From: a virus
Lineage: Duplodnaviria; Caudoviricetes
Strand: one strand, 5' to 3'
IMG/VR virus record: IMGVR_UViG_3300027708_000013
DNA length: 64,000 bases
The notes below the pieces were generated by a model. The model worked only from the letters and a program-made list of their open reading frames with translations, was not told the origin of the DNA and did no database searches. Positions 11,043 through 47,986 of the stretch are shown here, piece by piece (the first letter of the stretch is position 1; every line of letters begins with the position of its first letter). The position numbers were made by a program, and so were the translations under genes.

Positions 11043-11072
11043 ATTATACGTGATTGTATTTAGACCTGTCAA
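11043..11072 (-). promoter_or_regulatory. Consensus sigma70 promoter TTGACA-N18-TATAAT with an embedded late-type CTAAATA
   Basis: Minus strand reads TTGACA GGTCTAAATACAATCACG TATAAT upstream of the clamp RBS AGGAG. Confidence 0.8.
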
Positions 11073-12006: not shown

Positions 12007-14676
12007 TTATTCAAATGTAAACAAACTGTCAAATGTAGTTTTAATGTCAGTGGCTTCAGCAATGCCCCACTCCAGCACACCCAACAAATTTTCCACCTTT
12101 TGATCCACAATGGTCACTTCCATGAGGTCGTTGTCAAATGGCAAGTTTTTAAACCAGTCGGGAATGTGACTTTCATCTGTGGGATAGCCCACCGACGTAT
12201 AGCCCAAAGGATTGTCCTTTAATTTACACACAATGGTTTTCATACCATCCACAATACTCATGGAATAGTTGTCACTCATCATGCGTTTTAAGTTGTTCCA
12301 ATTCATTGCAGCTCTAACATGTCCTGGCATGTTGGCCTTGCCCAAGCGTTTTTCTTCGGCTGTGTATTTGGTTAGATTGTTTACACGTTTGGGTGTACCT
12401 TTTTCCCAGGCCGGACGTTCAGCAAATTCAATCTTGAATTCTCTAACTCTATCCACCACACGTTGTCTAACATCTCCGGTGCCGGTGAGTACTTCCAATA
12501 AAATTTCACTGAGAAACTCCTGCACAATCTTGGGAGTATCACTGCGTTTCAAATCCAAGCCCATGGCCTTGACCTTACCCGGCCGACCCATGACATCCTG
12601 TCGCTTGCCTTCTTTATCATAGATCAACACAGCATAGCGTTTCTTTTTAATGAACAATCCTTTACTTGCTACCAGTTCTCTGCCACCTAGAATAATAGCA
12701 CCCATGTCTCTGGGGCAGTGACAAGCACGTTCCATGAACGCTGGGAAACTTTCATTTACACTTTGGGCAATGGTGTCGTACAGTTGTACGCAGATTTCCC
12801 GCGACCATTCCATTCTACCCGCCGCAACTTCCTCTTTGACTGCGGGCCACGCTGAGAAGTATACCGAGTCGGTGTCGCCGTATATAATCGACGAGCCCAC
12901 ATGGTCGTATTCGCCTGTAATGGCTTCATTAACATGTGCATCCATGTGCCTTGCAATGATGCGGCCAGTGAGTGTCGTGCTCTGACCAATGCGGTGGTCG
13001 AAGAACCTGCAACCCGGGTTGAGGATCGCACCGTAGAGGCTGTTGAGGTTGATTTTTTTGACCAACTGTCGTTTGTCCCAGAACGCAACATCTTCCGGAG
13101 TTTCTGCGGCTTCCTTTTTGGCTTGTAAGTCTTTTCGTTCGGCATACCATCTCTCCAGTAATCCAGGAATAATTCCTTTGGTGTCGTATCTAAATATTGT
13201 ACCATTGGCACTGAGTGTCCATGGTTGTCTGCTGTCAAAGATCATTCGCCATACTTCAGCGGCCGAGTGTACAGTACTTTTGCCCGAGTCCTCCCAGTCA
13301 ATGGTGATTTCTGTGCCGGGTTCGGCATTCATCACAGCAGTGTATTCCACACTACCAAACATGTTTTCCCAAGCATCAGCAAAACTACTGCCTGAGGCTA
13401 TTTTATCCCCAATGTATCTATCTGTCATGATGGGACGCAGTTGAGCCACAACAGTTTCTGGACCCATGTTGAGTGCTCGAATGGCTGAGGGATACAAACT
13501 GTTGATGTCTATGGCACCAATGTATTCGTGTACACCGCGTTTGGGATAGGCCACATAAGCACCTGCGGCTTGACTGTTGACTTCTTCGTCACGTCCTCTA
13601 CGGTTGGGGGCAATCATGCCACGACTGTGTGCTTCGTTGATGATGGCCTGTTCAGTAACAGCCACAGCACCCATTGTGGTGGGCAACAACACTGTGTTGT
13701 CATGTGCCAGTTCATTGGCTAGATCCAAGTAACGTAATTTCTTATCCAGTTTGGCCAACAAGGCCACGTCCTGACGATTGTAGTCTATGAACTTTTCAAA
13801 CTCTCTGTTGTACAGTTGATCCAAGGTGCCTTCGTAGGCAGTTTTATTGCCCACTTCTTCGTATTCGCCAATGGCATCTAAACTGTAACTGTGACGTTCT
13901 TCATAGGTGTATTTTCTATACAACTGCATATAGTCCATATGCACACGACCTATCAAATCAAATGTCAATTGTTCGGCACCAAAGCGTTCAAATGTTCGCT
14001 GTTTGGGAAACTGTCCCCACAAGCACAGGCGTCGTGTGTCGTCTTTGCTCAACACACGATTGATACGCATGGTGGTGTAGGGAATATCATATCCCTCACT
14101 ATTCCACCCGCTCAAGATGTCGGCATCGTCAATGATGTCCAGGAATGTGTTCAACATGTCTGCTTCACGTTCAAACAAGAAACAGTTGTCAAATTTACGG
14201 CAAATTTCTTCTGCCGATTGCCATGAGTAACTCCGGGGTGGCACCACTAGAGTAACCATCCGGTCCATCCAGTCCATGTACACTGATATTGAAGTGATGG
14301 CGTTGAATGGATCATCCGGCTTGGAATAGCCACGCTCGGGATCAAAGTCCACTTCAATATCAAAAAAGGCTGTGTGTAATCTGGGTGAAGCCACGCCGAG
14401 ATAGTTTTCCTCTAGGCAACGAAATATGGGATTGATATCGCTTTCCCACAGTTGCTTGTTGGAGTTTATGCGTAGTTCTTTTTGGAATTCTTTATTGTTA
14501 CGTGTGGTAAAACGGCTCACAGGTGTACCGTAGATGGTTCGATGTTTGCCCTTGGGGTCATCATAATACAGGGTGTAGTTGGCTGGATATTCTCGATAAA
14601 CTCGCTCACCTGCAACTCGTTCTACCACATGAATACGATCTTTATTGCGATCAAACAATGCGTCAATATAGCTGAT
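12007..14676 (-). CDS. Family B DNA polymerase (T4 gp43-like) with 3'-5' exonuclease
   Basis: FFDIEV, GWNSEGYDIPY, DINSLYPS, KKINLNSLYG, YGDTDS, KKRYA; probable start is ATC at 14676 behind AAGGAG. Confidence 0.95.
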   Translation of the reverse strand: MSYIDALFDRNKDRIHVVERVAGERVYREYPANYTLYYDDPKGKHRTIYGTPVSRFTTRNNKEFQKELRINSNKQLWESDINPIFRCLEENYLGVASPRLHTAFFDIEVDFDPERGYSKPDDPFNAITSISVYMDWMDRMVTLVVPPRSYSWQSAEEICRKFDNCFLFEREADMLNTFLDIIDDADILSGWNSEGYDIPYTTMRINRVLSKDDTRRLCLWGQFPKQRTFERFGAEQLTFDLIGRVHMDYMQLYRKYTYEERHSYSLDAIGEYEEVGNKTAYEGTLDQLYNREFEKFIDYNRQDVALLAKLDKKLRYLDLANELAHDNTVLLPTTMGAVAVTEQAIINEAHSRGMIAPNRRGRDEEVNSQAAGAYVAYPKRGVHEYIGAIDINSLYPSAIRALNMGPETVVAQLRPIMTDRYIGDKIASGSSFADAWENMFGSVEYTAVMNAEPGTEITIDWEDSGKSTVHSAAEVWRMIFDSRQPWTLSANGTIFRYDTKGIIPGLLERWYAERKDLQAKKEAAETPEDVAFWDKRQLVKKINLNSLYGAILNPGCRFFDHRIGQSTTLTGRIIARHMDAHVNEAITGEYDHVGSSIIYGDTDSVYFSAWPAVKEEVAAGRMEWSREICVQLYDTIAQSVNESFPAFMERACHCPRDMGAIILGGRELVASKGLFIKKKRYAVLIYDKEGKRQDVMGRPGKVKAMGLDLKRSDTPKIVQEFLSEILLEVLTGTGDVRQRVVDRVREFKIEFAERPAWEKGTPKRVNNLTKYTAEEKRLGKANMPGHVRAAMNWNNLKRMMSDNYSMSIVDGMKTIVCKLKDNPLGYTSVGYPTDESHIPDWFKNLPFDNDLMEVTIVDQKVENLLGVLEWGIAEATDIKTTFDSLFTFE

Positions 14677-14683
14677 GATAATT

Positions 14684-14749
14684 CTCCTTGAGTGTGACTT
14701 TGAGCTCACACAGCTCTACATGTTCGTAAGTGAACGACTCTATATTATA
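14684..14749 (-). promoter_or_regulatory. Polymerase leader: -10 TATAAT, hairpins and SD AAGGAG
   Basis: GTGTGA-GCTCAAAG-TCACAC stem-loop (14692-14711) just upstream of the SD; GTTC-ACTTAC-GAAC hairpin; TATAAT at 14744-14749. Confidence 0.55.
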
Positions 14750-15379: not shown

Positions 15380-15468
15380 CGTTTTAGGGAGTTTTGGGCA
15401 CGACTCCTACTCCTCCCAGGCCAGCAGCCGGCCACACCAAAACCACAAGGGTCCTAAGGTAGGTGTTC
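15375..15468 (-). ncRNA. Putative structured non-coding RNA element
   Basis: GC-rich island in AT-rich intergenic DNA with stems ACACC/GGTGT, GGCCG/TGGCC, GGGAG/CTCCC. Confidence 0.45.
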
Positions 15469-15474
15469 TTTACG

Positions 15475-16995
15475 CTAGTAGATACTGATGGGATCCACTA
15501 TGACCAACTGTCCGTTGGCACGTCTTCTAATATTTTCAATCTGACCCAAATCCAAATTATAACCTTTGGGTCCAACTAGACCCTCAATGATCGCTTCGGT
15601 GGCATATATTAGGCCATCCAATTCTTGTTCGCTGATGCCGGAGGGTCTTGGTTTATTCATCATGAACGCATTTACCCCCAGCTGACCGCGTGCCATGGCT
15701 GTCATTAAATCCTCAATGTACTCTAGAGTAGCTTCTTCACTGGCCACATACTCCAAATACTCTGTTTCGTACACAAAATAAGTTTCTTCGCCCAGCTGAA
15801 AATCTCCTGAATTGTATATTCGTGGATAATGTGGGTTGCGTTGATTGCGTTGAAAAAACTCCACATAGTCACGCACAGCTTGTTCTCTATCACCATCACC
15901 CACACCCAGCACCTTGACTATGGTGTTTCTTGGACTTTTGAAAACTATTTGATCCCGCCCTTCACCCACGTACTTGTAGCCTTTTGAAAAGAAATAATCC
16001 TGTATTCTTTCGCTCACTTCAAGTTCATCTGCATCGTTGACTTCTTTTACTAATTCTTTTTTCTGTTGTTCCCAGATATTTTTACTTGGTTTATGTTTGT
16101 TCCAAAACCCAGCACCAGCCGCAGTTTGTGAAGGATTACGGCGTATTTTATATCCTTGATTTTTCATATAGTCATACATGGTGGCAGCAATGCCTTGACC
16201 ACGACAGCGATCATCAACTTCTAAATCTTCTGGTGTAAGATATTCGCCATCAAATGAAAACAGCACATGTCCCAGTTCTTGACCGTCGCTTCTAGCAATA
16301 ACATATATGAGTGGTTCATCATCCGGGTCAGCTATATAACCTTCAATATCATCTTGTGTTTCAATTGAAATATCTATGCCGTTGTAGTGTACAGTTTTGG
16401 CCTCTGCAACAGATTCTCTCGCAAATTCTCTGGCTCTGCCTTCTGGATCCACATGCCAAGCATAGAATCTTGTGTCGGGATATTCCTGCTTCAATTCCAT
16501 AAAACTGTTCAAGTTGGGCACAGCATCATCATACATGATGGCCTTGGTGTAACTACCTTGATCTAATAAATCACGTATGATCTTCTTTTTCTTTTCTTCT
16601 GTGGTAGCACCCTGCATGTTGCCGGCACGGTACACATGCACACGACTCATGTCAACACCGTACTTGCGGAACGTGTCTAAAAATAATTCTTTATCATCAA
16701 AGTCAGCTCTGGCCGTCACCATCACAACTCGGTTGCCTGTGGCAATATCGTGCTTGAGTTGATTCATCATGGGAATAATTGGACGCGATTTTTCAAAGAA
16801 TTCTTGTGCGTTTCTAAAGTCCGCAAAGTCAAATTCCTCGCCAGGCTGGAGTCGGTACAGTGTAAAGTCATGACTGTTTAAACTTTTAACTACAGCACCA
16901 TTGCGAATCACATGCACTTGAGTTTGCGTGTGCACCAAGGTGTCGTCTATGTCAAAGACAACTAATTTACTTGGTTGTATTTCATCAGCTCTCAC
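15475..16995 (-). CDS. Tri-domain protein: HAD phosphatase + GNAT acetyltransferase + protein-kinase-like domain
   Basis: VVFDIDDTL/YDD (HAD); LEVDDRCRGQGIA..MY (GNAT motif A); VGEGRDQIVF..VKVL, YPRIY, LDL..ENI...LVIVDP (kinase-like). Confidence 0.7.
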   Translation of the reverse strand: MRADEIQPSKLVVFDIDDTLVHTQTQVHVIRNGAVVKSLNSHDFTLYRLQPGEEFDFADFRNAQEFFEKSRPIIPMMNQLKHDIATGNRVVMVTARADFDDKELFLDTFRKYGVDMSRVHVYRAGNMQGATTEEKKKKIIRDLLDQGSYTKAIMYDDAVPNLNSFMELKQEYPDTRFYAWHVDPEGRAREFARESVAEAKTVHYNGIDISIETQDDIEGYIADPDDEPLIYVIARSDGQELGHVLFSFDGEYLTPEDLEVDDRCRGQGIAATMYDYMKNQGYKIRRNPSQTAAGAGFWNKHKPSKNIWEQQKKELVKEVNDADELEVSERIQDYFFSKGYKYVGEGRDQIVFKSPRNTIVKVLGVGDGDREQAVRDYVEFFQRNQRNPHYPRIYNSGDFQLGEETYFVYETEYLEYVASEEATLEYIEDLMTAMARGQLGVNAFMMNKPRPSGISEQELDGLIYATEAIIEGLVGPKGYNLDLGQIENIRRRANGQLVIVDPISIY

Positions 16996-17366
16996 GATTC
17001 AAAAAACTCCGGATGCTGTTCGCCAAAGTCACGCATGAGTACACCGGCTTCAGCATTGGCTTGATTTTCGGCCGCACTGCCTGTGGCTCCATCACCTGGA
17101 TCTAGTTCGTCCTGTTCTCTTTGACGTGCATGCACCAGCTCATGTGCCAGGGTACGTAACACATCAACGGGGTGTCTATCGCCCACAACTAGGTTTATTT
17201 GTTCTGTGTCTAGGTCAAATCCACCAAAGGCAGTGCCAGTGGGTTCACGAAGCAATCGAATTTTGGGAACAGATTTTAATTTTACTTGATCAACAAACCA
17301 AGGCAAGTACTGCCGAACCACTGACACAGTGTCCTGACCTTCAACCAGTATCTCAACAATTTTCAT
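16992..17366 (-). CDS. Zincin-like metallopeptidase with short Glu-ending leader
   Basis: RTLAHELVHARQ (HExxH), downstream E..ANA.AG; starts MKIVEILVE-G. Confidence 0.7.
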   Translation of the reverse strand: MKIVEILVEGQDTVSVVRQYLPWFVDQVKLKSVPKIRLLREPTGTAFGGFDLDTEQINLVVGDRHPVDVLRTLAHELVHARQREQDELDPGDGATGSAAENQANAEAGVLMRDFGEQHPEFFES

Positions 17367-18166
17367 TTTTTATGGCCTGACTTCATGTTGGCACACCATT
17401 GATACATTCGTTTACGTTCTCCCGATGCTGCTTTGGCTTTTTGTTTTAGACTGGTCACCGATCCCTTACAACTGGCACCTGCACGTTTTACACGTCCGGG
17501 ACGACTCTTGCCTCGGACCTTGCCATCGGCAAAGTTTTCTTTTACTACTTGTGCTTGTTGTGCCAATTCTGGAGTCACTGTGAATTCACTGTTGGGTGCC
17601 GAGGCCACACTATCGGTGTACTGTGCTAAATCTTGAGTGGGCACATCTATATAGGTCAATGATCCACCGTACTGTTGTAAAAACGGTAATGCTATGCCCA
17701 CTAAACTGTTGGTAAAAGTTGGATTTTGTCCCACTTCGCCGGGCCTATTGCCGCGCCACAAGCGTGTGTGGCCAGACTCAACAGGAGCCAGTTGACTTTC
17801 AATCTCCTGTGCCTGCTGTATCAAACTTTGAATACGTGGCGTGTCCATGTAACTTTGACCGTTGTAGTTTAATCCAGTGTTTTCTTTTAACTTTTGTTTC
17901 TTAATCCAATTGTCCGGAATGAGATTGTGTGCTTTGACAAAATCATCATGTAGTTTTTGACCTGTTATGTTGTGACTCCGGCAGATTCGTTGCATCATGG
18001 CATCTATGTTTTCATAGTTCATCTCGGTGCCGTTTTTCTTGGCACGTATCAGGGCCGTTTCTAATGCTGCTACTGCTCCATCCTTGGCTGTGCCCTTGGC
18101 GGATAAAGGCTCCATGGGTCCGGAGTATTTGCCTTCTATTAGATCAACGATTTCTAAGATTTTCAT
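17363..18166 (-). CDS. Modular protein with leader MKILEIVDLIE and basic C-terminal module
   Basis: Modules separated by LKE/VKE; K/R-rich Cys-containing tail. Confidence 0.7.
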   Translation of the reverse strand: MKILEIVDLIEGKYSGPMEPLSAKGTAKDGAVAALETALIRAKKNGTEMNYENIDAMMQRICRSHNITGQKLHDDFVKAHNLIPDNWIKKQKLKENTGLNYNGQSYMDTPRIQSLIQQAQEIESQLAPVESGHTRLWRGNRPGEVGQNPTFTNSLVGIALPFLQQYGGSLTYIDVPTQDLAQYTDSVASAPNSEFTVTPELAQQAQVVKENFADGKVRGKSRPGRVKRAGASCKGSVTSLKQKAKAASGERKRMYQWCANMKSGHKK

Positions 18167-18242
18167 ACAGGTGCGTAGGGATTCGTTGGTCTATCATCGT
18201 TGGGGTTTTCCTTTTCAGGATACACAGGATAAGGATAGTTCA

Positions 18243-19622
18243 TCAGCAGTTCCAACGTCGACGTGCTTTACAAATGGCCTTGTCCGGAGTCTTGGCACAC
18301 GAAATATTATGCATCTTCATTTGTCCTCGGCTTCTTGAACAGTAGCTTTTTCTACGCTTTGACGCTTTACTACCACGCTTTAGCTTTGACGGCTTGGTGG
18401 TTACAGCAGTTTTTAATTTTGAACCTGGATGTTCTCTACGATAGGCATTGACAGCTTTTTGACTCATACCTGAAGTGTGATCCCGTTTATTGACCTTTTG
18501 CCAATCTTCTGTGATGGTTTGCTGTGTAACTGCAAACACATACAGTTCGTCATCTGTTAATGATTCTAGGTCTTCCCATATCACTTCGGCATCTACACTG
18601 TTGTGATCAGCCAATCCTTCAATGATGCTTTCAACTAAATCAAACTCTTCGTCCAATTCATCATCATCTTCAGGACCTTCGGTATTCCGTATGTCATTGG
18701 AAATATCCATCATGCTTGCATCCGACATCCTGGACTGGGTCACAGCCCAATCCAACAGCTCTTGGAATTCTGTTTTGTCGGTCAGGATGGCCGGTTCCAA
18801 GGTTTTCAGCTGAGCTATCAGTTGCGGATAACTAGCCAGGGTCTTGATGGCAGTAGCTCTATCCATTTGCCAAGCCTTGATGGTCATGGCCGCACGATAG
18901 GCTGCACGACCCACTGGATCATCATCCAGCTCGCCGTCGTCCCAGTTGTGATCTTCGGGAGGTGCAAATTCCTTTAAGTTGTCTTCCGATACCCCTTGAT
19001 TTTCGTGATCGTTGATCAAATCATGTGCCTGTTGAACAAAAGGCCGATATCTATCTGTCATCTTGTAAGCAAAGTATTTCACTTTTCCATTGAGAAAAAT
19101 ATCACCTTCGAGTATGCCTCGAGCTGAATTGACCATGCAGTCACCCATTTGCTCGCCATCCTCATCGATCACATCAAAATGGTAGTTATAACTGCGTTTG
19201 CCATGGTTCTCAGCTTGTATCCCAGCCGAAACAAGAACCAATTGTGGCATATAGTCCTCGCCAGAGTCTCTGTTAGGAGAAAATTCGTTGAGTCGGTCTT
19301 CTTCAGTGACACTTTCATTGGGCACACATTTACGAACTTGTCCACCGTTCTTGCCCCGCTTGGTTCCTTCGGCATGATGATTTGGCCAGCAACGGGTAAA
19401 ACCGTTGGCGTCTTTTTGACCTTTGGCAATTTCATTGATGTTGCCGTGTGTTTCACACCGACCGCAGTCCGGGCAAGTCATTTCCATCACTTCATGACTT
19501 TCATTATGCTTGCGTTTACCAGCACAGTGAGCCCGTTGACTAAAACCTTTGGGATGACTGCAATTAATACTGTTTTTGTATTTTTGACTCCACTTTTCTG
19601 TTAGTATTTCATTGATTCTCAT
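18243..19622 (-). CDS. Modular protein (leader MRINEILTE) with several small Cys-containing basic modules
   Basis: ATG 19622 overlaps the Dps stop; modules KWSQKYKNSINC, CPDCGRC, CWPNHH..CVP, RRKSYCSRS..RRRWNC; acidic spacers. Confidence 0.7.
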   Translation of the reverse strand: MRINEILTEKWSQKYKNSINCSHPKGFSQRAHCAGKRKHNESHEVMEMTCPDCGRCETHGNINEIAKGQKDANGFTRCWPNHHAEGTKRGKNGGQVRKCVPNESVTEEDRLNEFSPNRDSGEDYMPQLVLVSAGIQAENHGKRSYNYHFDVIDEDGEQMGDCMVNSARGILEGDIFLNGKVKYFAYKMTDRYRPFVQQAHDLINDHENQGVSEDNLKEFAPPEDHNWDDGELDDDPVGRAAYRAAMTIKAWQMDRATAIKTLASYPQLIAQLKTLEPAILTDKTEFQELLDWAVTQSRMSDASMMDISNDIRNTEGPEDDDELDEEFDLVESIIEGLADHNSVDAEVIWEDLESLTDDELYVFAVTQQTITEDWQKVNKRDHTSGMSQKAVNAYRREHPGSKLKTAVTTKPSKLKRGSKASKRRKSYCSRSRGQMKMHNISCAKTPDKAICKARRRWNC

Positions 19623-20056
19623 TTTAATGTACTCCTTAACATCCATGCGTGTTTTCTAAAGGCATCCATTCTTTCAGCAAGAAAATTGCTGAAGCCGTGT
19701 TCACCTGCGGCTTCAGCTTGGTCGTAAACAATCTTTAATATTTTAAACATTTTATCTGCATCGTTCAATAGTTCCGCCACCATCTTCTCTGCCACCCACA
19801 CTGCACTTTCATCTTCAATGCGGGTCAGCATGGCGAATCTACTGTTTGACCCCGGAGCATAAGCACCCAAACTTCGTATTTTCTCAGCGAATTCATCCAC
19901 AGCACCATACACTTCGGTGTAGATGGTTTCAAATAAACTATGTAGTTCTTGAAAGTGTATACCTTCCACGTTCCAGTGGAAGTAGTGACTTTTCAAATAA
20001 AAAGTATAGTGACTGGCAAAGGCTATCTTTGCTGCTTGTGTTAGTTCATCGTTCAT
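19619..20056 (-). CDS. dps: Dps/ferritin-like DNA-protection protein
   Basis: HYFHWNVEG..F..LH..FE.IY, DEFAEKIRSLG, KHAWMLRS. Confidence 0.9.
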   Translation of the reverse strand: MNDELTQAAKIAFASHYTFYLKSHYFHWNVEGIHFQELHSLFETIYTEVYGAVDEFAEKIRSLGAYAPGSNSRFAMLTRIEDESAVWVAEKMVAELLNDADKMFKILKIVYDQAEAAGEHGFSNFLAERMDAFRKHAWMLRSTLK

Positions 20057-23000
20057 AGTATCTCGTATCCTGCTCGTTTAAGTTGTTGTAGGTAATTTTC
20101 CATGATGTCAAGTTCGTCATCGTCATCTTCTACCGGTATCAGCTGATCAAATGTGGCTGACCATCCGCGACCTTGTTTGTCACCGATCCAGCAACGACCA
20201 CGTTCTTGGTCACAGTGACTCACTGTGAATATCTCATCTGGGCGATCTGCGTACTCTGGTGTGAGTTTGACCTGCATGCCGTTGCGGAATGATTGCGAGC
20301 CTTCCTTCATTAAAGCACTACCACCATGATGCTTTTCGATATCTTGTTCTTTGCTGCTGATAGAATAATCCATAACACCGACAATCTTATCTACTGCCTG
20401 AGCAATTTCGCTTTGAACCCAGTCTGGCAAATCTTCATTGCTACCAATGGCATTGTCTAAATGGGTTATTACTCTTTTCATGGTGTGTAATTGATTTTTA
20501 ACAAAATCGCCCTCGCCTTGACTATGATTGTCAGCATCAACATTTTTTAATTGTGTATCATTGACATTGCCGTTGTATTCCGTTACACCGTGTATGGGGC
20601 TGATGCTGTCCACTGCCACTGGCATGTTGCTATCCTCAGATGCAACTCCAGTCACTGGCTTCAATGTAGCAGCCAACACTTTGAAAAGTTTGCCGGTCCA
20701 ATCTCGGATGACAACCTTTCCGCCCTCAATGCCCTGCACTGTGCAGGGTCGATTTGAAATACCCTCGTGCCGTACCTGTTTGCCCTTGGCTAACCAGCTT
20801 GGAACTGCTGATTCCGCCACACCTTGTTGGTCCAGACCATCTACGCTTTGCCACGCATGAGCAAATGCTTGATTCAGTGCTTGAGTAATTCCTGGATATT
20901 TTGATTCCCAGTTAAACTCGTCCAAACTTTTTTGATTCATAAGAATATTATAGATACCTTTAGCACCAGTATCCGCCACATCAATGATCCAGTCCGATGC
21001 TTGCCAATTCTTTGATAAGTTTTTAGCAACAAAACGAATTTGTTGAACTGCTTCCTTGGCTTCTTGATCGGCTTGTTCTTTTGAATATCCCAATTGAGAA
21101 ACATTTTCTTTTCGAGTGCGAAGAATATTGTTACGCAGTAAGGTAGCAAAACGCTGGGCCATCTGTTCTACTTTTGTTTGAACTTCTGGAGATAAAGTTC
21201 CTCTGCCTTCCGCCACACCCGGCTCGCCTGTGATGGCCTGTAACATGGCACGGGCAACCACACGATCTTTTTCTTTTTCATCTTCTGGCAATTGAGCATA
21301 GTTCTGTGTTACCAGTCGTTGACGCTGTGCCAATTTGGCTTGTAATTTTTCCGGAGCCATTGTTTTGCTATCATCAAATATCATTGGATTTTGTATAAAT
21401 GCCTGTGCAGTGACATTCCACCCTCTATGGATGGCATCACTGATCTTTTCAATGTCAGTCTCACCCGAGTCAATCATCTTTTTAGCATAAGCAGCTGATT
21501 TCAAGTTGGCCTGCCATCCAAATGTGTTACCTGGTGTGCTACGACCATAATGATAAGCCGCGTCTAGGGCCTCATCACTGATGGTGGCCAACTGTTCTAC
21601 ACTCAATGGTTTTCCAGCGGCTTCGGCCAGGCCACTGTGTACACGGGTCTTCAGTTGTTCCAGCACTTCATAGGCGGCTGTTAGATCCTGTTGTGCTTTG
21701 GCACGACCCTGATCGGTTTTCAGTATTTTTGTTTTTTTGTATAATTCACGGATTTGCGACTGCACTTTTTTGATTTCACCCATGGTGGCTGTTTCTGGAT
21801 GTTGAAACAGATCCTTGAACGCCTGTGCCAATGCGACGCCATAGACTGCTAGTCCGGATCCAATCACAACGCCAATGCCGGAGAGGTGATTGAGATTTTC
21901 GGGTTTCAAAGGACTATAGGGATTCATGGGACTAAAGGGACTCATGGGATTCAAAGGATTGGTGCTCCAAGAGCTTTCATTGGTGGTGCTGTGTGTGGAG
22001 CCTTCTGTCACACCCGGCTTTTTAGTCATGTACCGGTCAGCATCTGCGGCTCTGCACTGTGCTGGATCTAAAGGATCAAACTTTGCATTTCCAATTGTAA
22101 AATTCTTGCCGTATTTCTTATAAAGACTATTTGCAAGATTTTCTCTGGCTCGACTGGCTGTTGACAGAGAGGGAAATACTTTCCAGTAGATGTTATCGCC
22201 ACCTTGAGTTTTCCTCCACCAAACCACTTGCGGAGTATTTTCTATTGGGCCATTACGATCAACATAGCCTTCCGCCACAACTTGGAATTTACTTTGTATC
22301 TCTTGTAATGCTTGAGCCAACAGTTCGGTTGGTGCCCGGCTGAGTAATTGTGATATATCGTTATGGAACTGACGGTATAACTGACCCCAAGTTGGGCAAC
22401 TATACGCCATTGCATGAGCACGATTACTACTGCCTTCTTGATCTAGAGAGCGAACGTATTTCCAAAGTTCACGTCTAATCGTGTCACGATCGGTTGGAGC
22501 AACTAATTCTCTACGTGCATCTCTAGACAACGGAGCAGTTTCCTCCACACCCGACCGTTGTTTAACCTGCTGTCGTTGTTTTAATTTTAATTTAGTCTGT
22601 GGATCTAATGCCCATCCTGGCTTGTGCCCGGTTGGTTGACTTGTTGAAGCTTTGTGATTTTTCTCCCAAGCAGATCGCATTAGATCCCCTTCGGCCACAT
22701 CCTTCTTGTTGATGTCATCAGTGCCGTGTTCAACGCCGCCGCCAAACAGTTCATGCCAAACCATTGTAAGCACTGGTGCATAGGCTCTAGAGCCGGGCAC
22801 AGTGTTTAATATTTGGTATATGGGTGCCAACCTATTCCAATAATCGGTATAGTTTTCGCTGTAGTCCAACACCGAATGCCAACTGTCTTCTCCGTCTGCT
22901 GGATTTCCATCCTCATCTTCGTCATTACCGGCAAAGGCTCTAGGTCCTATGCGTTTCCACAGTTGCATCATCTCCTGGTATGCACCTCCATCACTGCCAT

Positions 23001-24252
23001 AGAAATGTCCACCGGGATATCCATTGGGGAACATGTCGGGAAACATGCCAACAATCTTGTCAGCTGATTGGCTTTTTTCTTGATATTGGGGGAATTGACG
23101 AATTATGTCAGCCCACTGTTTGGCTATGGTTTGAAATTTTCCACTGGATACCAGTTTACTCAACATGGTGTCAAATTTCAAATCACCAGTGACTTCACCT
23201 AAATTATCTTTGCCATGTACACGATTCAATGCACGATCAACACCTTTTTTGCGTTGCGGACCTTTTGGTCCAAAGGTTTTCTCTATCTTGCCATACATGT
23301 CGCGTTGTACGCCACCCAGCTTTTCGGCTTGTTTTTTGGTCACATCCAATAGATATTGCTCGGCTTTTTCTATTGAGGTTTCCGTTACATCTCGCACAGC
23401 AACACCGTAGCGACGCAACAGGTTCCTGCCATCACTCACTCTAAATGCACCTTTTACATAAGGTCCCACTCGCTTGATGGCTTTTTGTTCTATATGGGGT
23501 AGATGCATTTCAGCCTGTTCGGGGGTGTTGTATTCACCGTATATCACTGCTGCACCGTCCCAGGCCCATACATAATATAATCCGGGGTCAACTGGGTACT
23601 CTCTACCTTGAATGGTTTCAATTGCTTCCGCCACACCATCTTCTTTCATTTTATCCAGCTCGTGTTGTGGAATTCCTTTTTTTCTGAGATAAAAGTCTCT
23701 AGCTCGTTTACCAACCTCAGGGGTATAATTGAATAGCACACTGGCTGGGGTCAATGGTGGAGGATGTCCATGGGCTTTGATATATGCTTTACGTTCTGCT
23801 TTTTCTTCTGGACTTCTCGCATCATGACGCCCGCTTTCCTCCACACCTTTGCTCATAGTAGGACCTGTTGTAGGTAGTTCTTCAAACTCAGCGTATGCAT
23901 CAAATACATCCTTATAGCCTTGTTGCTGGGCTAGTTTGTCAAAGTAATTATATGATACTCGGTATTTCTGCATTAGTGGTTTTAATGCATCTGTTGGGTC
24001 AATGTCTGGATAGCCCTGTGTTAGTGCAGAAATAACTTCTGGCCAGCTTGGACCACCGGAGCCTTCCTCCACACCCGAGCCAACGGGACTGGCCACATTG
24101 TCTGAATCCTGTGTGGCCGCCACACCGTTCAAGCCAGCTGAGGTGAATAGATCCGTGTCTTCGGCAAACTCGTGTATGATTTCAATTCGAGATTCGCTAA
24201 CCGTGGGTTTGCTTGGTTTTTTGTTGCTGTCAAATAAGTCGTATATGTTCAT
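20053..24252 (-). CDS. 1399-aa GVxE-linked cassette polyprotein (includes RyR-like, SH3-like and helical modules)
   Basis: Eight G-V-x-E linkers plus DVAE/VVAE/GLAE/DVTE variants; YAQLPEDEKEKDRVVAR resembles the RyR repeat. Confidence 0.75.
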   Translation of the reverse strand: MNIYDLFDSNKKPSKPTVSESRIEIIHEFAEDTDLFTSAGLNGVAATQDSDNVASPVGSGVEEGSGGPSWPEVISALTQGYPDIDPTDALKPLMQKYRVSYNYFDKLAQQQGYKDVFDAYAEFEELPTTGPTMSKGVEESGRHDARSPEEKAERKAYIKAHGHPPPLTPASVLFNYTPEVGKRARDFYLRKKGIPQHELDKMKEDGVAEAIETIQGREYPVDPGLYYVWAWDGAAVIYGEYNTPEQAEMHLPHIEQKAIKRVGPYVKGAFRVSDGRNLLRRYGVAVRDVTETSIEKAEQYLLDVTKKQAEKLGGVQRDMYGKIEKTFGPKGPQRKKGVDRALNRVHGKDNLGEVTGDLKFDTMLSKLVSSGKFQTIAKQWADIIRQFPQYQEKSQSADKIVGMFPDMFPNGYPGGHFYGSDGGAYQEMMQLWKRIGPRAFAGNDEDEDGNPADGEDSWHSVLDYSENYTDYWNRLAPIYQILNTVPGSRAYAPVLTMVWHELFGGGVEHGTDDINKKDVAEGDLMRSAWEKNHKASTSQPTGHKPGWALDPQTKLKLKQRQQVKQRSGVEETAPLSRDARRELVAPTDRDTIRRELWKYVRSLDQEGSSNRAHAMAYSCPTWGQLYRQFHNDISQLLSRAPTELLAQALQEIQSKFQVVAEGYVDRNGPIENTPQVVWWRKTQGGDNIYWKVFPSLSTASRARENLANSLYKKYGKNFTIGNAKFDPLDPAQCRAADADRYMTKKPGVTEGSTHSTTNESSWSTNPLNPMSPFSPMNPYSPLKPENLNHLSGIGVVIGSGLAVYGVALAQAFKDLFQHPETATMGEIKKVQSQIRELYKKTKILKTDQGRAKAQQDLTAAYEVLEQLKTRVHSGLAEAAGKPLSVEQLATISDEALDAAYHYGRSTPGNTFGWQANLKSAAYAKKMIDSGETDIEKISDAIHRGWNVTAQAFIQNPMIFDDSKTMAPEKLQAKLAQRQRLVTQNYAQLPEDEKEKDRVVARAMLQAITGEPGVAEGRGTLSPEVQTKVEQMAQRFATLLRNNILRTRKENVSQLGYSKEQADQEAKEAVQQIRFVAKNLSKNWQASDWIIDVADTGAKGIYNILMNQKSLDEFNWESKYPGITQALNQAFAHAWQSVDGLDQQGVAESAVPSWLAKGKQVRHEGISNRPCTVQGIEGGKVVIRDWTGKLFKVLAATLKPVTGVASEDSNMPVAVDSISPIHGVTEYNGNVNDTQLKNVDADNHSQGEGDFVKNQLHTMKRVITHLDNAIGSNEDLPDWVQSEIAQAVDKIVGVMDYSISSKEQDIEKHHGGSALMKEGSQSFRNGMQVKLTPEYADRPDEIFTVSHCDQERGRCWIGDKQGRGWSATFDQLIPVEDDDDELDIMENYLQQLKRAGYEIL

Positions 24253-24941
24253 CGTGTAGTTCCTGCTGAAGGTGGTGTTGTGGCAGAGGGTGCTGGTGTT
24301 GTGCTAGTTCCAGGCTGTGCGGGTTGACCGGCAGTAGCCGAGGCAGTGCCAGCTGTGGGAGTTTGTCCCATGGACTTTTGAGCCTGTTGTACCTGTTTGT
24401 TTTTTTGTAATTCTGTTTGTTGTGTTTTATCCAACAATGCTTTGAACTGACTGGCAGTTTGTGGATTCTGTAACATGTTGCTGGCAGCCACAGCCAATGG
24501 GCCCAGCTGATTTTGTTCTTGATTGCTGAGGTCAGTGCTGGGAGCCTGATCTAATTTATCCATTACCGCAGTGAACTTGGCAGGATTCATCTGCTGAGCA
24601 GCACCCAGCTGATTTAACTTTGGTTTGATTTGATTCACTGATTTTTGTATCTGTGATTGATCTGTTTTCTGTTGAAGGGCCGCTGGATCGGGTTTTTGTG
24701 CAGTGGAGCCCGGGGCGGTTTGAGCGGCAGCTCCATATCCGCCCACGCCACCGTATTCAGTAACGTAGGAGTAATACTCCTGCATTAGCTCACGGGCAGT
24801 TTGTTTCACCTGCGGACGACTTTTTAATTCAGCTTGTAATTCTCGCAGTACACTTTCAGTGACAAGGGTTGATGGTTGATCCAACGGCGTTGCGGTGTCA
24901 GCAATGGTGTCCATACGATGGATTAATGTACGTAGATTCAT
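24249..24941 (-). CDS. Low-complexity Q/A/T/P-rich protein in the cargo operon
   Basis: Coupled ORF; LVTE/YVTE sites; disordered-looking tail. Confidence 0.7.
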   Translation of the reverse strand: MNLRTLIHRMDTIADTATPLDQPSTLVTESVLRELQAELKSRPQVKQTARELMQEYYSYVTEYGGVGGYGAAAQTAPGSTAQKPDPAALQQKTDQSQIQKSVNQIKPKLNQLGAAQQMNPAKFTAVMDKLDQAPSTDLSNQEQNQLGPLAVAASNMLQNPQTASQFKALLDKTQQTELQKNKQVQQAQKSMGQTPTAGTASATAGQPAQPGTSTTPAPSATTPPSAGTTR

Positions 24942-27670
24942 CAGCGTTTGATCATACTTTCTTTTTTCACTGACTTCTTACGAAAAGGACTGCTGGGGTT
25001 CTTGTAAGTACCACCAAACAGTGTACCGGTTCCGGGTCCTGAGCCTGGAGTGATTGCTGTGCTGATTGAACTGGAAAAAGTTTCGGCTATACGATCTAGA
25101 TCTTGATCCAGGGTGGGTAATTCTTTTGTTTTCTTAAGAGCTTGTCCGGTTAAGTTGTGTACTTTGCCTTGAGGATTTTTCTTAGGATTGGTTGGTTTCC
25201 ATGGGCCTTCGTCTCGCCAACTGGTGACATTTCCATCTTTATCTTTTGTTTCAGTTCTGTCTTCCGACACACCCGGCTTCTTGACACCCAGGTTGGCTGC
25301 TGGATTGCCGCCACCAAACATGCTGTCAAAAGCATCTTTAGATTGTTGTTTGGTGTCTGCTGTTCGTTGTTTGGCTACTGCTTTTTTACCAGTGATGCCT
25401 TTAAACATCTTGTCAAACTTTGGGTCGCCGGTGGCTTCCGCTACACCCGACTCTGGTAAATTAGGTTTGCGGTGTTGGCCAAGCTGACCTTTAATAGCGG
25501 CTTTAAGATCGCCTGAACGACGGGCTCTCTGCTGATCAGCAAATTCTTTTGTCTCTGGACTTGCACCGGGAGTATTCATTCCAGGAATATTCCCTAGATC
25601 GGTTTGACCTGGTCTAGGAAATTTATGTGCAGTGTTCATACCTGTGCGAGCCCTCAGTCTGTCTGGACTTGTTCCTAATGCTTCCGCCACACCTTCACCA
25701 AATCTATTTGTTGGGGATACATTGCGTGGATCAGAGAAGTCAGCACTAGGCTCAGGCATACTATATTCATGAACTTCGTGAACCCACTCCTCTGGAATAT
25801 CTAACTTACGAGCAATAGTTGCCGCTGGTACACCCTTTACCAGCAAGTCAATGATCTGTTGATCAATTTTACTTTGTGGGCCATTGCCTTCCGCCACACC
25901 CGACTTGCCAGCAGGAACAACTTCAATTTTACTAAATTTACTGTTTTTCATTCGTGCTTTGAATTTTTCTTCAGCGTCTTGCGGATTCAATGCTTTGATT
26001 GTGGCGCTGGAATAGCTTGTTCCAGACTGACCAAAATAGCCCTTGACATCATACACTTGTCCGGGCTGGGCATTGAAATCTGCCTGCATTTTTTTCAAAT
26101 TCATTACACTCTGCTTGCTGATTCCGCCGGGATTGCCGCGACGAGGTTTTTTAAGAGCGGCCTGATACGGAGTATGTATATCTTTTTGTGTATCAAAACC
26201 TTGTTTATCCAGGTAATGCAATACATCGTCGCTGACCTGGGTGTCGAGATCAAATAGTGCGGCAATACCAGCAGTCATTCCTTTGTGTAAAAAAGTTTCT
26301 CCTACTTCTTTGATCATTTCTCCGTCTTCTGCAGAAGCTTCATCATCCCACAATGTGCTGTACTGTTTGCTGAACTCAACAATAGCTGTACCATACTGTA
26401 GCGGGCCATTGTTACCTTCTCCGCCGGGTGCAAATTCGTTTAGTTTACCATTGGCTGACTTTGCATCTTTTTCTAATACACTTGCTGCATGTTGTAAAAA
26501 ATCAATTAAATCATATGCTGTTACAATCTCATAAGGTGTCATGGCACGGCCAAGATCAATGCTCCAGTCGTCCAACTCGTAACGACCTGAGGTTACAATT
26601 TTTGCATAACGCAAGATCCATTGACGTGCTTTTGCAAGATTTGGACTGGCCAAGTCGCGAGTACGATTTAGTACATCATACAACGTATCAATGTGTTGAC
26701 CTGGATCTGCTACTTCTTGATCAATTGCTGAAATTATATCTTCAAGGCCCAGAGACTGTGTATCCGCTTGTTTTTTACTAGTGATGTTGTTGAGCCAGGT
26801 GTCAAATTTTATATCGCCGGTTGCTTCCGCCACACCTTGCTTGCTACTCATTCTTTTCAACAAACTCACAGCATAAACCAAATGCTGGCCAAGTTCTTTT
26901 CGTTGATCTGTTCCTGGTTTAGCATTGCTATTTTTCTGTATACTCTTTGCTAAATTTTCGGCGGCAAGTGCTTGACGGGCCAAATCACCATTGGACCGAT
27001 TGCCAACGATTTGATTTAAAAATCCACGCTTGCGGTTGGCTTGATTTGCACCATCAATTAGTGCCTTAACAATTTTATCTATCTGTTCAGCTGTTGCTCT
27101 ATCACCCACTGTGACAAACTCATCGTGGCGTGTTTCCCAATCCAAGCCTTCCTCCACACCTTGTTCTTCATTCACAGCCCGGTGTTTCACATCCTTCAAG
27201 TGTGCATCAACACCCGCGGTGTTTTTTAATTTCCATTTGGCAGCGGCCTTTCGAGCAGCTTCATAGGAAGTTTTGGCTGTTACTTCGCACTGACCTTTTT
27301 TTGCGTGTACACAAACATAAGCACGTTCTGCATCACTCTCGCCCAACAATTCAGCAAACTTTTCTTCAGCTTCGGCAATGTTGAACACTGTCATGCCACT
27401 GGCATGGGGTCTTTCGCCGCTCATGACATCGTACTCCAACCATTCGACCACAGTTTTTAAATAGTCATTGGCTAGACTGATCTTTTCAGCGGCCCAAGCA
27501 TCCAGTTCGTGCCCGTCGGGTAATTTGCCCAGTAATTGATGTAGTTTGATTGCGTTGGCAGCCGAGTGATAGCACTCTTCTCTCAGCATGTGGTGTTGTT
27601 GGCTCTTATGCATTTGATGTGCGTCATCGCCAATAAATTCGTGTTCTGTGATAAAATCTTGTGGTTTCAT
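24941..27670 (-). CDS. 909-aa GVxE-linked cassette polyprotein (leader MKPQDFITE)
   Basis: Six GVxE linkers; HTH-like module (IIDLLVKGVPAATIARKLDIPEEWV); two ATGDxKFD modules. Confidence 0.75.
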   Translation of the reverse strand: MKPQDFITEHEFIGDDAHQMHKSQQHHMLREECYHSAANAIKLHQLLGKLPDGHELDAWAAEKISLANDYLKTVVEWLEYDVMSGERPHASGMTVFNIAEAEEKFAELLGESDAERAYVCVHAKKGQCEVTAKTSYEAARKAAAKWKLKNTAGVDAHLKDVKHRAVNEEQGVEEGLDWETRHDEFVTVGDRATAEQIDKIVKALIDGANQANRKRGFLNQIVGNRSNGDLARQALAAENLAKSIQKNSNAKPGTDQRKELGQHLVYAVSLLKRMSSKQGVAEATGDIKFDTWLNNITSKKQADTQSLGLEDIISAIDQEVADPGQHIDTLYDVLNRTRDLASPNLAKARQWILRYAKIVTSGRYELDDWSIDLGRAMTPYEIVTAYDLIDFLQHAASVLEKDAKSANGKLNEFAPGGEGNNGPLQYGTAIVEFSKQYSTLWDDEASAEDGEMIKEVGETFLHKGMTAGIAALFDLDTQVSDDVLHYLDKQGFDTQKDIHTPYQAALKKPRRGNPGGISKQSVMNLKKMQADFNAQPGQVYDVKGYFGQSGTSYSSATIKALNPQDAEEKFKARMKNSKFSKIEVVPAGKSGVAEGNGPQSKIDQQIIDLLVKGVPAATIARKLDIPEEWVHEVHEYSMPEPSADFSDPRNVSPTNRFGEGVAEALGTSPDRLRARTGMNTAHKFPRPGQTDLGNIPGMNTPGASPETKEFADQQRARRSGDLKAAIKGQLGQHRKPNLPESGVAEATGDPKFDKMFKGITGKKAVAKQRTADTKQQSKDAFDSMFGGGNPAANLGVKKPGVSEDRTETKDKDGNVTSWRDEGPWKPTNPKKNPQGKVHNLTGQALKKTKELPTLDQDLDRIAETFSSSISTAITPGSGPGTGTLFGGTYKNPSSPFRKKSVKKESMIKR

Positions 27671-27690
27671 GCGTTAAACTCCAGTATATT

Positions 27691-27701
27691 ATAGTATTTA
27701 G
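27691..27701 (-). promoter_or_regulatory. T4-late-like promoter CTAAATACTAT
   Basis: Matches the core of T4 TATAAATA(ctatt); heads the coupled 27670-15475 gene chain. Confidence 0.65.
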
Positions 27702-27704
27702 CAG

Positions 27705-27983
27705 CTAGATTGTAAACGATAAATCTTGACTGCTGATGCCGGCACCGTTGACAGTAAAATTTTGTGTGCTTATACAACCTTGTGTAACACATTCCTGTAC
27801 TGTTAACTGATGTGTTCCCGGCTCAAGATCTACTTCAATATTTTCTTGAACATAAACACTGTATGCGGGCCAACGCCAAGTGCGTTCAGTGAGTAGATCA
27901 CTGTCAACATAAACTCTATACACCGGAGCACCCTCAGCAGTAGAGTTGCAATGAACATCTACAGAGAGTGCCAATAAGGTCAT
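27705..27983 (-). CDS. Small beta-rich hypothetical protein
   Basis: ATGA overlap with upstream stop; YRVYVDSDLLTERTW. Confidence 0.6.
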   Translation of the reverse strand: MTLLALSVDVHCNSTAEGAPVYRVYVDSDLLTERTWRWPAYSVYVQENIEVDLEPGTHQLTVQECVTQGCISTQNFTVNGAGISSQDLSFTI

Positions 27984-28828
27984 CGATACGTGCCTTGCCA
28001 AAGTTGCTGAATTTTACTCTTTAACTCGGCAATTTTCTTTTGATAGTGGGGTTTGGCAGCAGAATCAATGTTGCTATCGGCAATCAAGTCCTGATAGTGG
28101 TCAATGTCATCGCGATATTTTTTAATCAAGTACACAGTGGCATCCACAGTGGGATTGCTTTCTGCCACACCTTGTTGTACAGTTTCATCTAACACACTGC
28201 TTAATAATTTCAAAGCACGTTGGGGATTTTTTGGGTATAGTGTTTGTGCAATTTTTGCACGACCTGCAGGCGTGGCCTTTGCCCAAGCAGCACGTATTTC
28301 ACTGGCACTGGTGACTCCACCTGCAAATTCCACAGTGGGCAAATAGGCCATGTAGGCATGTTGAGCCAAGGGTAGAAGATTTTTGATATTAGTAAAAGAC
28401 TGCAAATAGTTGCTTACTGGTTGCCCCTTACGTGGCCCACGAGTAACCAAAGGTAATTTACCTGTTGCAGGATCAACTTTTGCTGGTTGTGGTGCTTGGT
28501 TGCGATCTTTTTCGCTACGCACAAATATCAATGCTGTAGCTGTGGGATCATAGTGATCTACAATTTCCTTTGCAGTAAAAGGACTTTTGACCTGTACAAA
28601 GTGGTCTGCTGGAACACCAGCGATGGTGGCCAATTCTTGTTTAACTGCAAAAGGTATCGGACGTTCGCTAGTATCGTTGGTAGAAGCCACATATACATCA
28701 GCTCCAGGAAATGCCCGCAGTGCGGATGTGTAAAGAGACATGTGTCCAGGAGTCCATGGATGAAATCCCCCCGGCATTATCACAAGAGTTTTTAGAGTCG
28801 TTGCTTCAAATAAATCTGCTATGAACAT
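27980..28828 (-). CDS. Cytidylyltransferase-like (HxGH) nucleotidyltransferase with leader and a C-terminal GVAE module
   Basis: VIMPGGFHPWTPGH, SASEIR; starts MFIADLFE-A; QQGVAE-S before the last helix. Confidence 0.75.
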   Translation of the reverse strand: MFIADLFEATTLKTLVIMPGGFHPWTPGHMSLYTSALRAFPGADVYVASTNDTSERPIPFAVKQELATIAGVPADHFVQVKSPFTAKEIVDHYDPTATALIFVRSEKDRNQAPQPAKVDPATGKLPLVTRGPRKGQPVSNYLQSFTNIKNLLPLAQHAYMAYLPTVEFAGGVTSASEIRAAWAKATPAGRAKIAQTLYPKNPQRALKLLSSVLDETVQQGVAESNPTVDATVYLIKKYRDDIDHYQDLIADSNIDSAAKPHYQKKIAELKSKIQQLWQGTYR

Positions 28829-28849
28829 GGCAATATCCGTTTATAGCAG

Positions 28850-28856
28850 TATTTAG
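28850..28856 (-). promoter_or_regulatory. Late-type promoter CTAAATA
   Basis: CTAAATACTGC upstream of 28828. Confidence 0.55.
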
Positions 28857-30484: not shown

Positions 30485-30513
30485 GTTGGGCTCCTTGAAT
30501 AATATGCTAGTAT

Positions 30514-31230
30514 TTAGCCAGGCGCTGACACCATGGCATGAATATTTGATATTAATGCAGGGTTTATTAGGCCAATAAACGTAACAATCGCTGGATCGTT
30601 GGTGTAAAAGAACACACCCCAAGTGCTTTCATACTGTTTATTCAGCATGTCTTTAGATGTTTTGCTTAGTTTAACTGTGTCGCCTAGATTTTCTAAATAG
30701 TGTAATAATTGTTGTTTAGTTTGAAGTGAATATCTACCATCGCGTACAATTACTTTGTGTGAGTATGCCCATGGTGTTGGTGTTACAATGGCACCGCACT
30801 GTAACAATGGCACCATTTCCGGCTGTGGGTATGTGATAGATTCTATATATTTTGGATCAATCTTCAATGCTATGGTTTTTAATGTGGCTTCATCTTGGGT
30901 ATAAAATTGTATGTTGGGTTCTTCTATACGTGTTCTAACTGAGCCAGACATGCCTGTTTTGATCTCTTGAACTGTACGCAACAGCGTTAAATCTACTAGA
31001 TCCAAGTTGGGAGATCTATAAAACCAACCAGTTTTACCAAAATTATATCCAGATTGAGCCATAGCACGTCTATGTTCCAACGCCGCTTCAAGACTTGCAA
31101 GTTTTGAATCCAACAGTCTACCGCCTTCGGCATGTATTACCAAACGCCAAAGATATCTACCGTGAAATTGCTTCACAGTGGTAGCGAGTTTGATACCCGG
31201 TTGTATTTTATTCCAGAACGATGAGTCCAT
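30514..31230 (-). CDS. Hypothetical protein
   Basis: 238-aa ORF coupled to clpA. Confidence 0.65.
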   Translation of the reverse strand: MDSSFWNKIQPGIKLATTVKQFHGRYLWRLVIHAEGGRLLDSKLASLEAALEHRRAMAQSGYNFGKTGWFYRSPNLDLVDLTLLRTVQEIKTGMSGSVRTRIEEPNIQFYTQDEATLKTIALKIDPKYIESITYPQPEMVPLLQCGAIVTPTPWAYSHKVIVRDGRYSLQTKQQLLHYLENLGDTVKLSKTSKDMLNKQYESTWGVFFYTNDPAIVTFIGLINPALISNIHAMVSAPG

Positions 31231-33490: not shown

Positions 33491-33511
33491 GTTAGTGCCT
33501 CGTAAAGATAT

Positions 33512-47929: not shown

Positions 47930-47986
47930 TGTGTGAATGCTCCAGTATTAGTTTTATTTAGCTTGTTTTACAAGGGTGTTGCATAT

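Follow-up and report, generated by a model that had tools for sequence, protein, structure and literature searches.

The 64,000-nucleotide (nt) stretch of a tailed-phage genome (Caudoviricetes) recorded as IMGVR_UViG_3300027708_000013, referred to here in its full length as the window, carries on its minus strand a chain of ten genes (28828 to 15475) whose largest products are strings of unrelated modules joined by a short peptide linker, G-V-[AETS]-E. At the nucleotide level this linker acts as a microhomology through which modules are lost, gained or transferred to other genes and other phages, always in frame, and its role in recombination is the best-supported part of the present analysis. 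The best explanation of the locus as a whole, with a probability that we put at roughly 55%, is that it represents a hypervariable cargo locus of a jumbo phage with a T4-type core, in which a dual-purpose linker would serve both the exchange of modules and the cutting of cargo proteins after their packaging.

Linkers as module boundaries and recombination breakpoints

The strict motif occurs eight times in a protein of 1399 amino acids (aa; 20053-24252), six times in the 909-aa protein P0001 (24941-27670) and once each in proteins of 467 aa (18243-19646) and 282 aa (27980-28828). These 16 copies agree exactly with the count in an earlier note on this sequence, and no strict copy is present elsewhere in the window in stop-to-stop frames of at least 100 aa in all six frames. 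Shuffled versions of the two large proteins (5000 shuffles) contained on average 0.13 and 0.08 strict motifs (maxima 3 and 2), which corresponds to an enrichment of 60-75 times. Further boundaries carry the variants DVTE, DVAE, VVAE, GLAE, SVAE, SVTE and EVSE. The residue following a strict linker is G, A, S, T, D or E with GVTE|Y as sole exception, close to the G/A/S/T/D first proposed. Cuts at all strict and variant linkers would yield about 29 pieces of 50-312 residues with isoelectric points from 4.2 to 10.5, a wider range of sizes than the 40-160 aa initially given for the modules. Among 84 metagenomic relatives of P0001, i.e. matches of a search with this protein that are 500-1566 residues long and have varied Pfam domains, 294 strict motifs were found in 66,581 residues, with [KE]-[QKE]-G-V-A-E-[GA] as extended consensus and GVxE as the most enriched word of the form xx-x-E. 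Most of these relatives have only 7-16% of the 909-aa query in common with it, at 60-77% identity.

The linkers coincide with the ends of homology. In all-against-all BLAST comparisons, 38% of homology-block ends lay within 5 residues of a linker Glu, compared to 4.5% of random positions. In P0001, block ends pile up at two linker Glu residues, 20 of them at residue 803 (GVSE, 25262-25273) and 8 at residue 282. The most widespread module of P0001 in these comparisons (108 aa, residues 175-282) is conserved from its upstream QGVAE to its downstream QGVAE, with unrelated sequence on either side, as expected from the original description of these proteins as strings of unrelated modules. Of 1.84 billion cluster representatives, only 42 contain it, and its position within these proteins, which are 83-1184 residues long, varies widely. 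In its AlphaFold2 model, a predicted local distance difference test score (pLDDT) of 60-89 is reached in the helical core; the flanks that hold the two linkers stay below 50, so that for the one module folded the linkers fall outside the domain. A whole-protein MAFFT alignment (the 909-aa protein and 92 homologous fragments) misplaced fragments and was left out of folding. Foldseek searches with the module against PDB and viral models returned only generic helical bundles, which point to no particular function. Module order and content differ between relatives, e.g. three blocks of the 1399-aa protein stand in a different order in the relative P0046. Orthologues are not collinear, whereas the earlier note had named collinearity as a ground for rejecting its interpretation. 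A motif (A/V)TGDxKFD was also noted at the start of three different modules in two genes (25262-25435, 26771-26824 and about 23150-23200); it is followed about 6 residues on by ITxKK in two of the three copies, and two of the three stand directly after a linker. The 58-aa version of the module that it opens is the most widely shared of all, with about 40 relatives.

Conservation of the linker extends to its DNA, with the element CAA GGT GTG GCG GAA GGC encoding Q-G-V-A-E-G. Linkers of the window read GGT GTG GCG GAA G(G/C), with GGT in 15 and GTG in 13 of the 16 strict copies, and GCG, which makes up 7% of Ala codons in the cluster genes, is used in 8 of 11 GVAE linkers. The same codons dominate in three diverged contigs, with CAA before and GGC after them (background 12-24% for GTG and 8-11% for GCG), as well as in 101 distinct linker contexts near the polymerase gene of 80 related contigs. 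A 14-nt motif allowing up to 3 mismatches was found 20 times in the window, where 3.2 matches were expected, and 16 of the 20 are in-frame linkers; the GVAE at 21208-21219 has its exact consensus. In a synonymous-site comparison of the 108-aa module, codon identity was 0.94 in linker columns and 0.72 in the body, for 11 distinct copies, which are too few and too closely related for a firm conclusion.

Direct evidence for recombination came from a related contig, L209, which shows 86-96% DNA identity to the window and differs from it by four indels with breakpoints inside linkers. It lacks 25900-27146, i.e. modules 2 and 3 of the 909-aa protein, between the linkers GVEE (27149-27160) and GVAE (25889-25900), and 23638-24062, between GVEE (24064-24075) and GVAE (23626-23637). 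It also lacks 22551-23378, and the linker that remains at this place, GAT|GTG GAG GAA, is a chimera which combines the left part of DVTE (23380-23391) with the right part of GVEE (22540-22551). At the variant linker VVAE (22270-22281), L209 has an extra 62-aa module between two identical 18-nt copies of CAAGGTGTGGCGGAAGGC, of which the window has one.

Contigs from public lake runs yielded six joints that have a linker at either end and by which entire modules are lost without a change of frame. Three of them have an end in the GVAE at 23626-23637, namely a 210-nt joint with GVEE (23836-23847), a 438-nt joint with GVEE (24064-24075) and a 3199-nt joint with GVAE (26825-26836). The last fuses gene 24941-27670 to gene 20053-24252 in frame through 14 shared letters, and was seen in two runs from different studies. 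Two others, of 324 nt (the 108-aa module, joined at 26825-26836) and 1260 nt (joined at 25889-25900), have GVEE at 27149-27160 in common; the former stems from an RNA library, so that an artefact of reverse transcription is possible. A joint of 246 nt links the GVAE at 25682-25693 to that at 25436-25447. Five other joints lie outside linkers (with sides of 23-46 letters), and one more has a single end at a linker. Among the contig ends listed for matches to the window, 17 of 24 lie within 8 nt of a linker, compared to 6% expected. The linker repeat is shorter than the word length of assemblers, so the joints should not be assembly chimeras through the repeat. The cassette architecture and the in-frame recombination mediated by linkers are together held with high confidence. 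Summed over contigs, the depth of the two best DNA runs at 26753-27063 (the 108-aa module) and at 22088-22398 was 3-5 times that of the flanks, which fits the presence of these two modules in several genomic contexts per sample. The other linkers of the two large proteins and the 282-aa protein are DVAE (22690-22701), GVTE (22003-22014), GLAE (21622-21633), GVAE (20812-20823), GVTE (20578-20589) and, in the 282-aa protein, GVAE (GGT GTG GCA GAA, 28160-28171).

Leaders and the linker as a putative cleavage site

In the mechanism that we propose, the cluster genes are in-frame strings of independent modules (enzymes, DNA-binding-like and other domains) parted by a single dual-purpose element. 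Their proteins would be made late and targeted into the prohead by a short T4-like leader, M-K-x-x-[DE]-[FI]-[ILV]-x-E, and a gp21-type prohead protease would cut after the Glu of each leader and linker. In this way a single gene could supply the capsid with many small proteins that are delivered along with the DNA. Packaging with cleavage by the prohead protease, as judged from sequence features, has about even odds.

The leaders of the window cluster, MKPQDFITE, MKIVEILVE and MKILEIVDLIE, as well as those of relatives (MKTTEFIKE, MKINEILTE, MRATEFVTE), resemble the capsid-targeting sequence of T4, MKTYQEFIAE (PMC9026906, PMC3012670), in line with the likeness to T4 internal head proteins suspected before. 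The pattern M-[KR..]-x-x-[DEQ]-[FILVY]-[FILV]-x(1-4)-E is matched by three genes of the window, which all belong to the cluster. In the family, 22 of 84 proteins (26%) fit the leader pattern strictly and 45 of 84 (54%) loosely, compared to 4 (1.1%) and 15 (4.3%) of 349 other genes of the related phage G001, an enrichment of 12-23 times. Several modules are separate genes in G001, each behind a leader of the M-K...E type. The module that follows GVTE at 20578-20589 is N-terminal behind a leader in relatives; the module after a window GVTE follows a leader ending in ILTE in P0020, by a weak alignment.

The sequence CTAAATAC is present on the minus strand at 28849-28856 and 27694-27701, 21 nt before the ATG at 28828 and 24 nt before the ATG at 27670, respectively. 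It occurs 8 times in the window, with 2.1 copies expected, and 7 of the 8 are on the coding strand; further copies stand before a tail-fibre-like gene (52191) and a gene for a 1191-aa protein (56581), and a shorter form, CTAAATA, stands before the gene that starts at 47929. Its occurrence before both cassette genes and the tail-fibre-like gene suggests late expression, and CTAAATA(C) is likely a clade-specific late promoter analogous to TATAAATA of T4. Late-type promoters had been placed at 28850 and 27695; CTAAATAC does occur at both sites, but the T4 form TATAAATA is absent upstream of the cluster genes. Coding-strand copies of CTAAATA(C) located 20-35 nt before gene starts were noted at 56603-56610, 52215-52222, 47955-47961, 30510-30517 and 11056-11063, in addition to the two in the cluster.

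The linker profile is Val at P3 (rarely Leu or Met), a free P2, a near-invariant Glu at P1, and Gly or Ala at P1'. In 167 in-frame DNA matches, the first two positions of the Glu codon showed 0 and 5 mismatches and the second position of the Val codon 2, compared to 48 at the third position of the P2 codon; P2 itself varies among Ala, Glu, Thr and Ser. Changes at the first position of the Val codon lead mostly to Met or Leu. Such an uneven pattern is not predicted by DNA pairing alone, but it is predicted by a hydrophobic-x-Glu peptide. Cleavage by T4 gp21 follows a hydrophobic-x-Glu rule, with residues 8 and 10 of the targeting sequence as determinants of its processing (PMC9026906). The linker is compatible with a rule of [L/I]-x-E followed by a small residue, without being identical to the capsid site of the clade.

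A gp21-family protease (Peptidase_S77; 88.7 bits, above the cut-off) is encoded in G001 at 365849-366304, beside scaffold, capsid and portal genes, and the scaffold and an acidic core-like protein of G001 contain LVAE|G and PIAE|G. Prediction of a complex between this protease and a 48-residue linker segment of a G001 polyprotein gave a score of 0.00 with a partner pLDDT of about 35, and speaks neither for nor against cleavage.

Several observations weigh against the proposed packaging and cleavage. The capsid maturation site, deduced from 69 distinct sequences of the clade, is L-[KAMS]-E|[NSAT] and not GVAE, and the Leu or Ile of T4-type sites is replaced by Val in the linker. With L-x-E as capsid site, the linker is far stricter than a gp21-type protease should need, and this excess of strictness is better explained by a role in DNA. 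The protease which the earlier note had suggested looking for was found in a relative, G001, rather than in the window's own phage. N-termini fitting the leader pattern are found in only about a quarter to half of the family. No match to the large genes was obtained in 50,697 phage records by megablast or tblastn, i.e. the cassette system was not found in cultured phages, and in the cultured relative Phosso collagen-like genes without linker occupy the syntenic place. Lastly, the cluster encodes a predicted metallopeptidase that could be a rival processing enzyme.

The strongest alternative, although unlikely in our view, is that linkers are in-frame recombination joints and flexible connectors only, and that the proteins act uncut as multidomain proteins of the polyvalent type, packaged or not. 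The role at the DNA level that it calls for is directly shown and, combined with the shared reading frame, explains most of the amino-acid conservation of the linker, including its strictness relative to the capsid site; moreover, many polyvalent proteins are delivered unprocessed (PMC5512222). It does not account as well for a Glu codon and a second Val position that are near-invariant next to a free P2, which looks like selection for a hydrophobic-x-Glu peptide, or for the same modules standing alone behind leaders that end in hydrophobic-x-Glu.

It appears improbable that the linkers are instead cut, possibly within the head or following injection, by the zincin which the cluster itself encodes (16992-17366). 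This minimal 124-aa protein, with the motif HELVH...E and a leader of its own (MKIVEILVE|G), has residues H75, E76, H79 and E100 invariant in 18 homologues, and at no fewer than 25 related loci its module is retained in the cassette cluster, either as a separate gene or as part of a polyprotein. Its model is confident (pLDDT 85, predicted template modelling score 0.82), and its best PDB matches are all zincins, namely IrrE/PprI, Wss1 (template modelling score 0.63), selecase, SPRTN and ADAM-8; the Foldseek E-values are nevertheless weak (0.025 or above), and all Pfam zincin matches are below cut-off. Gp21-type proteases are Glu-specific, whereas none of the zincin matches found is known to cut after Glu, and the enzyme may instead target host proteins. 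Zincin domains are the commonest hub of polyvalent proteins and were proposed to process the protein (PMC5512222).

A role of the conserved nucleotides in RNA or translation, as ribosome pause at boundaries or as internal initiation at an in-frame GTG, is very improbable: GTG and GCG are non-preferred codons, the 34 tRNAs of G001 include none specific for either and GVEE versions contain GGAGGA, but the other linker codons GGT, GAA and CAA are common, the element is demonstrably a DNA breakpoint, and internal initiation as a general role is ruled out by the lack of a Shine-Dalgarno-like sequence upstream of GTG in most window linkers.

A further reading places the 18-nt element under double selection, as an in-frame DNA joint by which modules move between genes and co-infecting phages and as a prohead cut site. 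This double selection is put forward tentatively, as less likely than not. Effectors delivered by the capsid could then evolve in a plug-and-play manner, perhaps with the aid of a specialised recombination or nicking activity.

Genes of the cluster and the phage lineage

Neighbouring genes of the chain mostly overlap by 1-4 nt, consistent with the translational coupling proposed for it at the outset. The first of the ten, for the 282-aa protein, encodes a nucleotidyltransferase-like domain with an HxGH-type motif, followed by its linker and a 59-aa tail module; the match to PF01467 is weak, and residues 1-200 align to relatives carrying PF01467. It is followed with an ATGA overlap by a 92-aa gene without linker (27705-27983), also found in L209, and by P0001, with 7 modules and the leader MKPQDFITE. 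A coupled gene (24249-24941) for a 230-aa low-complexity protein rich in Gln, Pro, Thr and Ala, devoid of strict linkers, separates P0001 from the 1399-aa protein, with about 13 modules and, besides its 8 strict linkers, 4 variant ones. The 467-aa protein has 3-4 modules, the linkers SVTE (19302-19313), which ends a module common to the window and three relatives, and GVSE (18984-18995), and a C-terminal DUF6321 domain. Downstream lie genes for a 267-aa protein with the leader MKILEIVDLIE|G and a basic tail (17363-18166), for the zincin, and for a 506-aa protein (15475-16995) with HAD/PNK-phosphatase-like, GNAT and kinase-like domains joined by SVAE (16402-16413) and EVSE (16009-16020), in this order.

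Searches of the two large proteins and of single modules against Pfam and PHROGs returned nothing above threshold, with a helix-turn-helix hint for module 595-663 and a match to phrog_917, both weak, as leads below it. A protein atlas search with module 283-594 gave no usable match. No MuF-type or other head-anchoring or packaging domain was matched in any cluster protein by Pfam or PHROGs. Polyproteins of relatives carry Zeta/AAA_33, methyltransferase and GNAT domains.

A Dps/ferritin-like gene (19619-20056; PF00210, E-value 1.4e-20) lies between the genes for the 1399-aa and 467-aa proteins. It is conserved within the cassette cluster, adjoining cassette genes in relatives too (syntenic genes in L104, L105, L106 and L209), and has neither leader nor linker. 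A lake DNA contig (run X3) skips 4225 nt of the window (15439-19665), which would drop the four genes 15475-19646 as a block; the short side of this joint is only 23 letters, so that the observation is weak.

Nearly all long genes of the window are on the minus strand. The B-family DNA polymerase (12007-14709) shows 50% identity to its counterpart in Sinorhizobium phage Phosso and 46% to the one in Agrobacterium phage Atu_ph07; these two are jumbo phages whose core genes are of the T4 type. A database contig carrying the window's protein is 340,958 bp long, and about 600 related contigs are present in IMG/VR. The relative G001 (374,314 bp, estimated complete), whose sequence was pieced together for comparison from overlapping stretches, has a polymerase 82% identical to that of the window. 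Relatives have a conserved gene order of DnaJ, ClpB-like ATPase, cassette genes, Dps/ferritin-like gene and DNA polymerase. One relative that contains a 92% identical copy of module 3 is located beside a large terminase gene in another phage. RNA-library contigs from two lake metatranscriptomes are identical to many parts of the cluster, with DNA carry-over as a possible source.

The cargo cluster is closely preceded, in all relatives examined, by a gene for a ClpB/ClpA-like AAA+ ATPase (31208-34360 in the window). In the loci of relatives this gene is accompanied by one for DnaJ; no DnaJ gene was identified in the window itself. It is conceivable that the two are linked to unfolding and refolding of cargo. 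In G001, about 18 small tandem genes (181181-182678, 202900-203581 and 236310-238572) end in (F)GVEE-stop; MNERIKELAEQ...KFAELIVKEC is common to most of them, and in most cases the next frame abuts directly. The GVEE codons of these genes may do no more than supply the coupled gene downstream with a Shine-Dalgarno-like GGAG. G001 also has a tRNA with anticodon CTA (amber-reading, detected by ARAGORN) at 176114-176189, apart from its main block of 33 tRNAs at 298-317 kb.

Implications and comparison with known systems

What is observed here is a coding microhomology in which the breakpoints fall when modules are gained or lost in wild populations, a clear and testable case of intragenic domain shuffling by recombination. 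If the proposed packaging and cleavage are true as well, one short sequence would allow dozens of small proteins to be packed from few genes, with rapid and frame-safe exchange. Effectors injected by uncultured giant phages, probably counter-defence proteins in many cases, could then be recognised by a natural rule, and the sequence would offer a natural template for multi-protein loading of T4-type capsids. A full-text literature search on the linker motif in phages found no description of a linker-based system of this kind.

The closest parallel is provided by the internal proteins IPI, IPII, IPIII and Alt of T4. Like the cluster proteins, these have a short N-terminal leader ending in hydrophobic-x-Glu (MKTYQEFIAE, compared to MKPQDFITE, MKIVEILVE and MKTTEFIKE) and diverse, fast-evolving payloads, and a gp21-family protease is present in the clade of the window phage. 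The diversity of the T4 payloads was read as that of anti-defence cargo (PMC9026906, PMC3012670). Unlike T4, in which each gene encodes one small protein, the cluster has up to 13 modules fused by a standard internal linker that is fixed at the DNA level, and Pfam and PHROGs gave no indication of sequence homology between the two groups of proteins.

Polyvalent proteins (Iyer, Burroughs, Anand, de Souza and Aravind 2017, PMC5512222) likewise bring together many unrelated effector-type domains in one polypeptide, with a recurrent zincin partner, extensive domain mosaicism and a proposed delivery with the DNA. Domains of this type are found in the cluster, as HAD/PNK, GNAT and kinase-like domains in one chain or as a nucleotidyltransferase-like domain with its tail. 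The text of that paper is without the word "linker", whereas the cluster has a uniform internal linker; no MuF-type anchor was found in the cluster by Pfam, and most of its modules match no Pfam family.

In the giant phages phiKZ, 201phi2-1 and SPN3US, many head proteins, among them inner-body and ejection proteins, are cut by gp175/gp245 after Glu at short motifs and leave with the DNA, as we predict from sequence for the cluster. Their sites are loose ([S/A/G]-x-E) and serve to remove propeptides, whereas the cluster has a repeated, standard junction between swappable modules; no conservation at the DNA level was reported for the phiKZ-type sites, and the phage lineage is different. A precedent for the DNA role is found in T-even phages, for which Tetart, Repoila, Krisch and co-workers reportedly described recombination at the His boxes of tail-fibre adhesins and conserved starts of internal-protein genes. 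In those phages too, variable segments lie between short conserved coding motifs, where crossovers swap modules between phages. The cluster differs in having a uniform element of 14-18 nt, present up to 13 times per gene between whole domains, that may be a protease site as well. What is new relative to T4 internal proteins and polyvalent proteins is thus a uniform internal linker, fixed at the DNA level, that is the breakpoint of module exchange.

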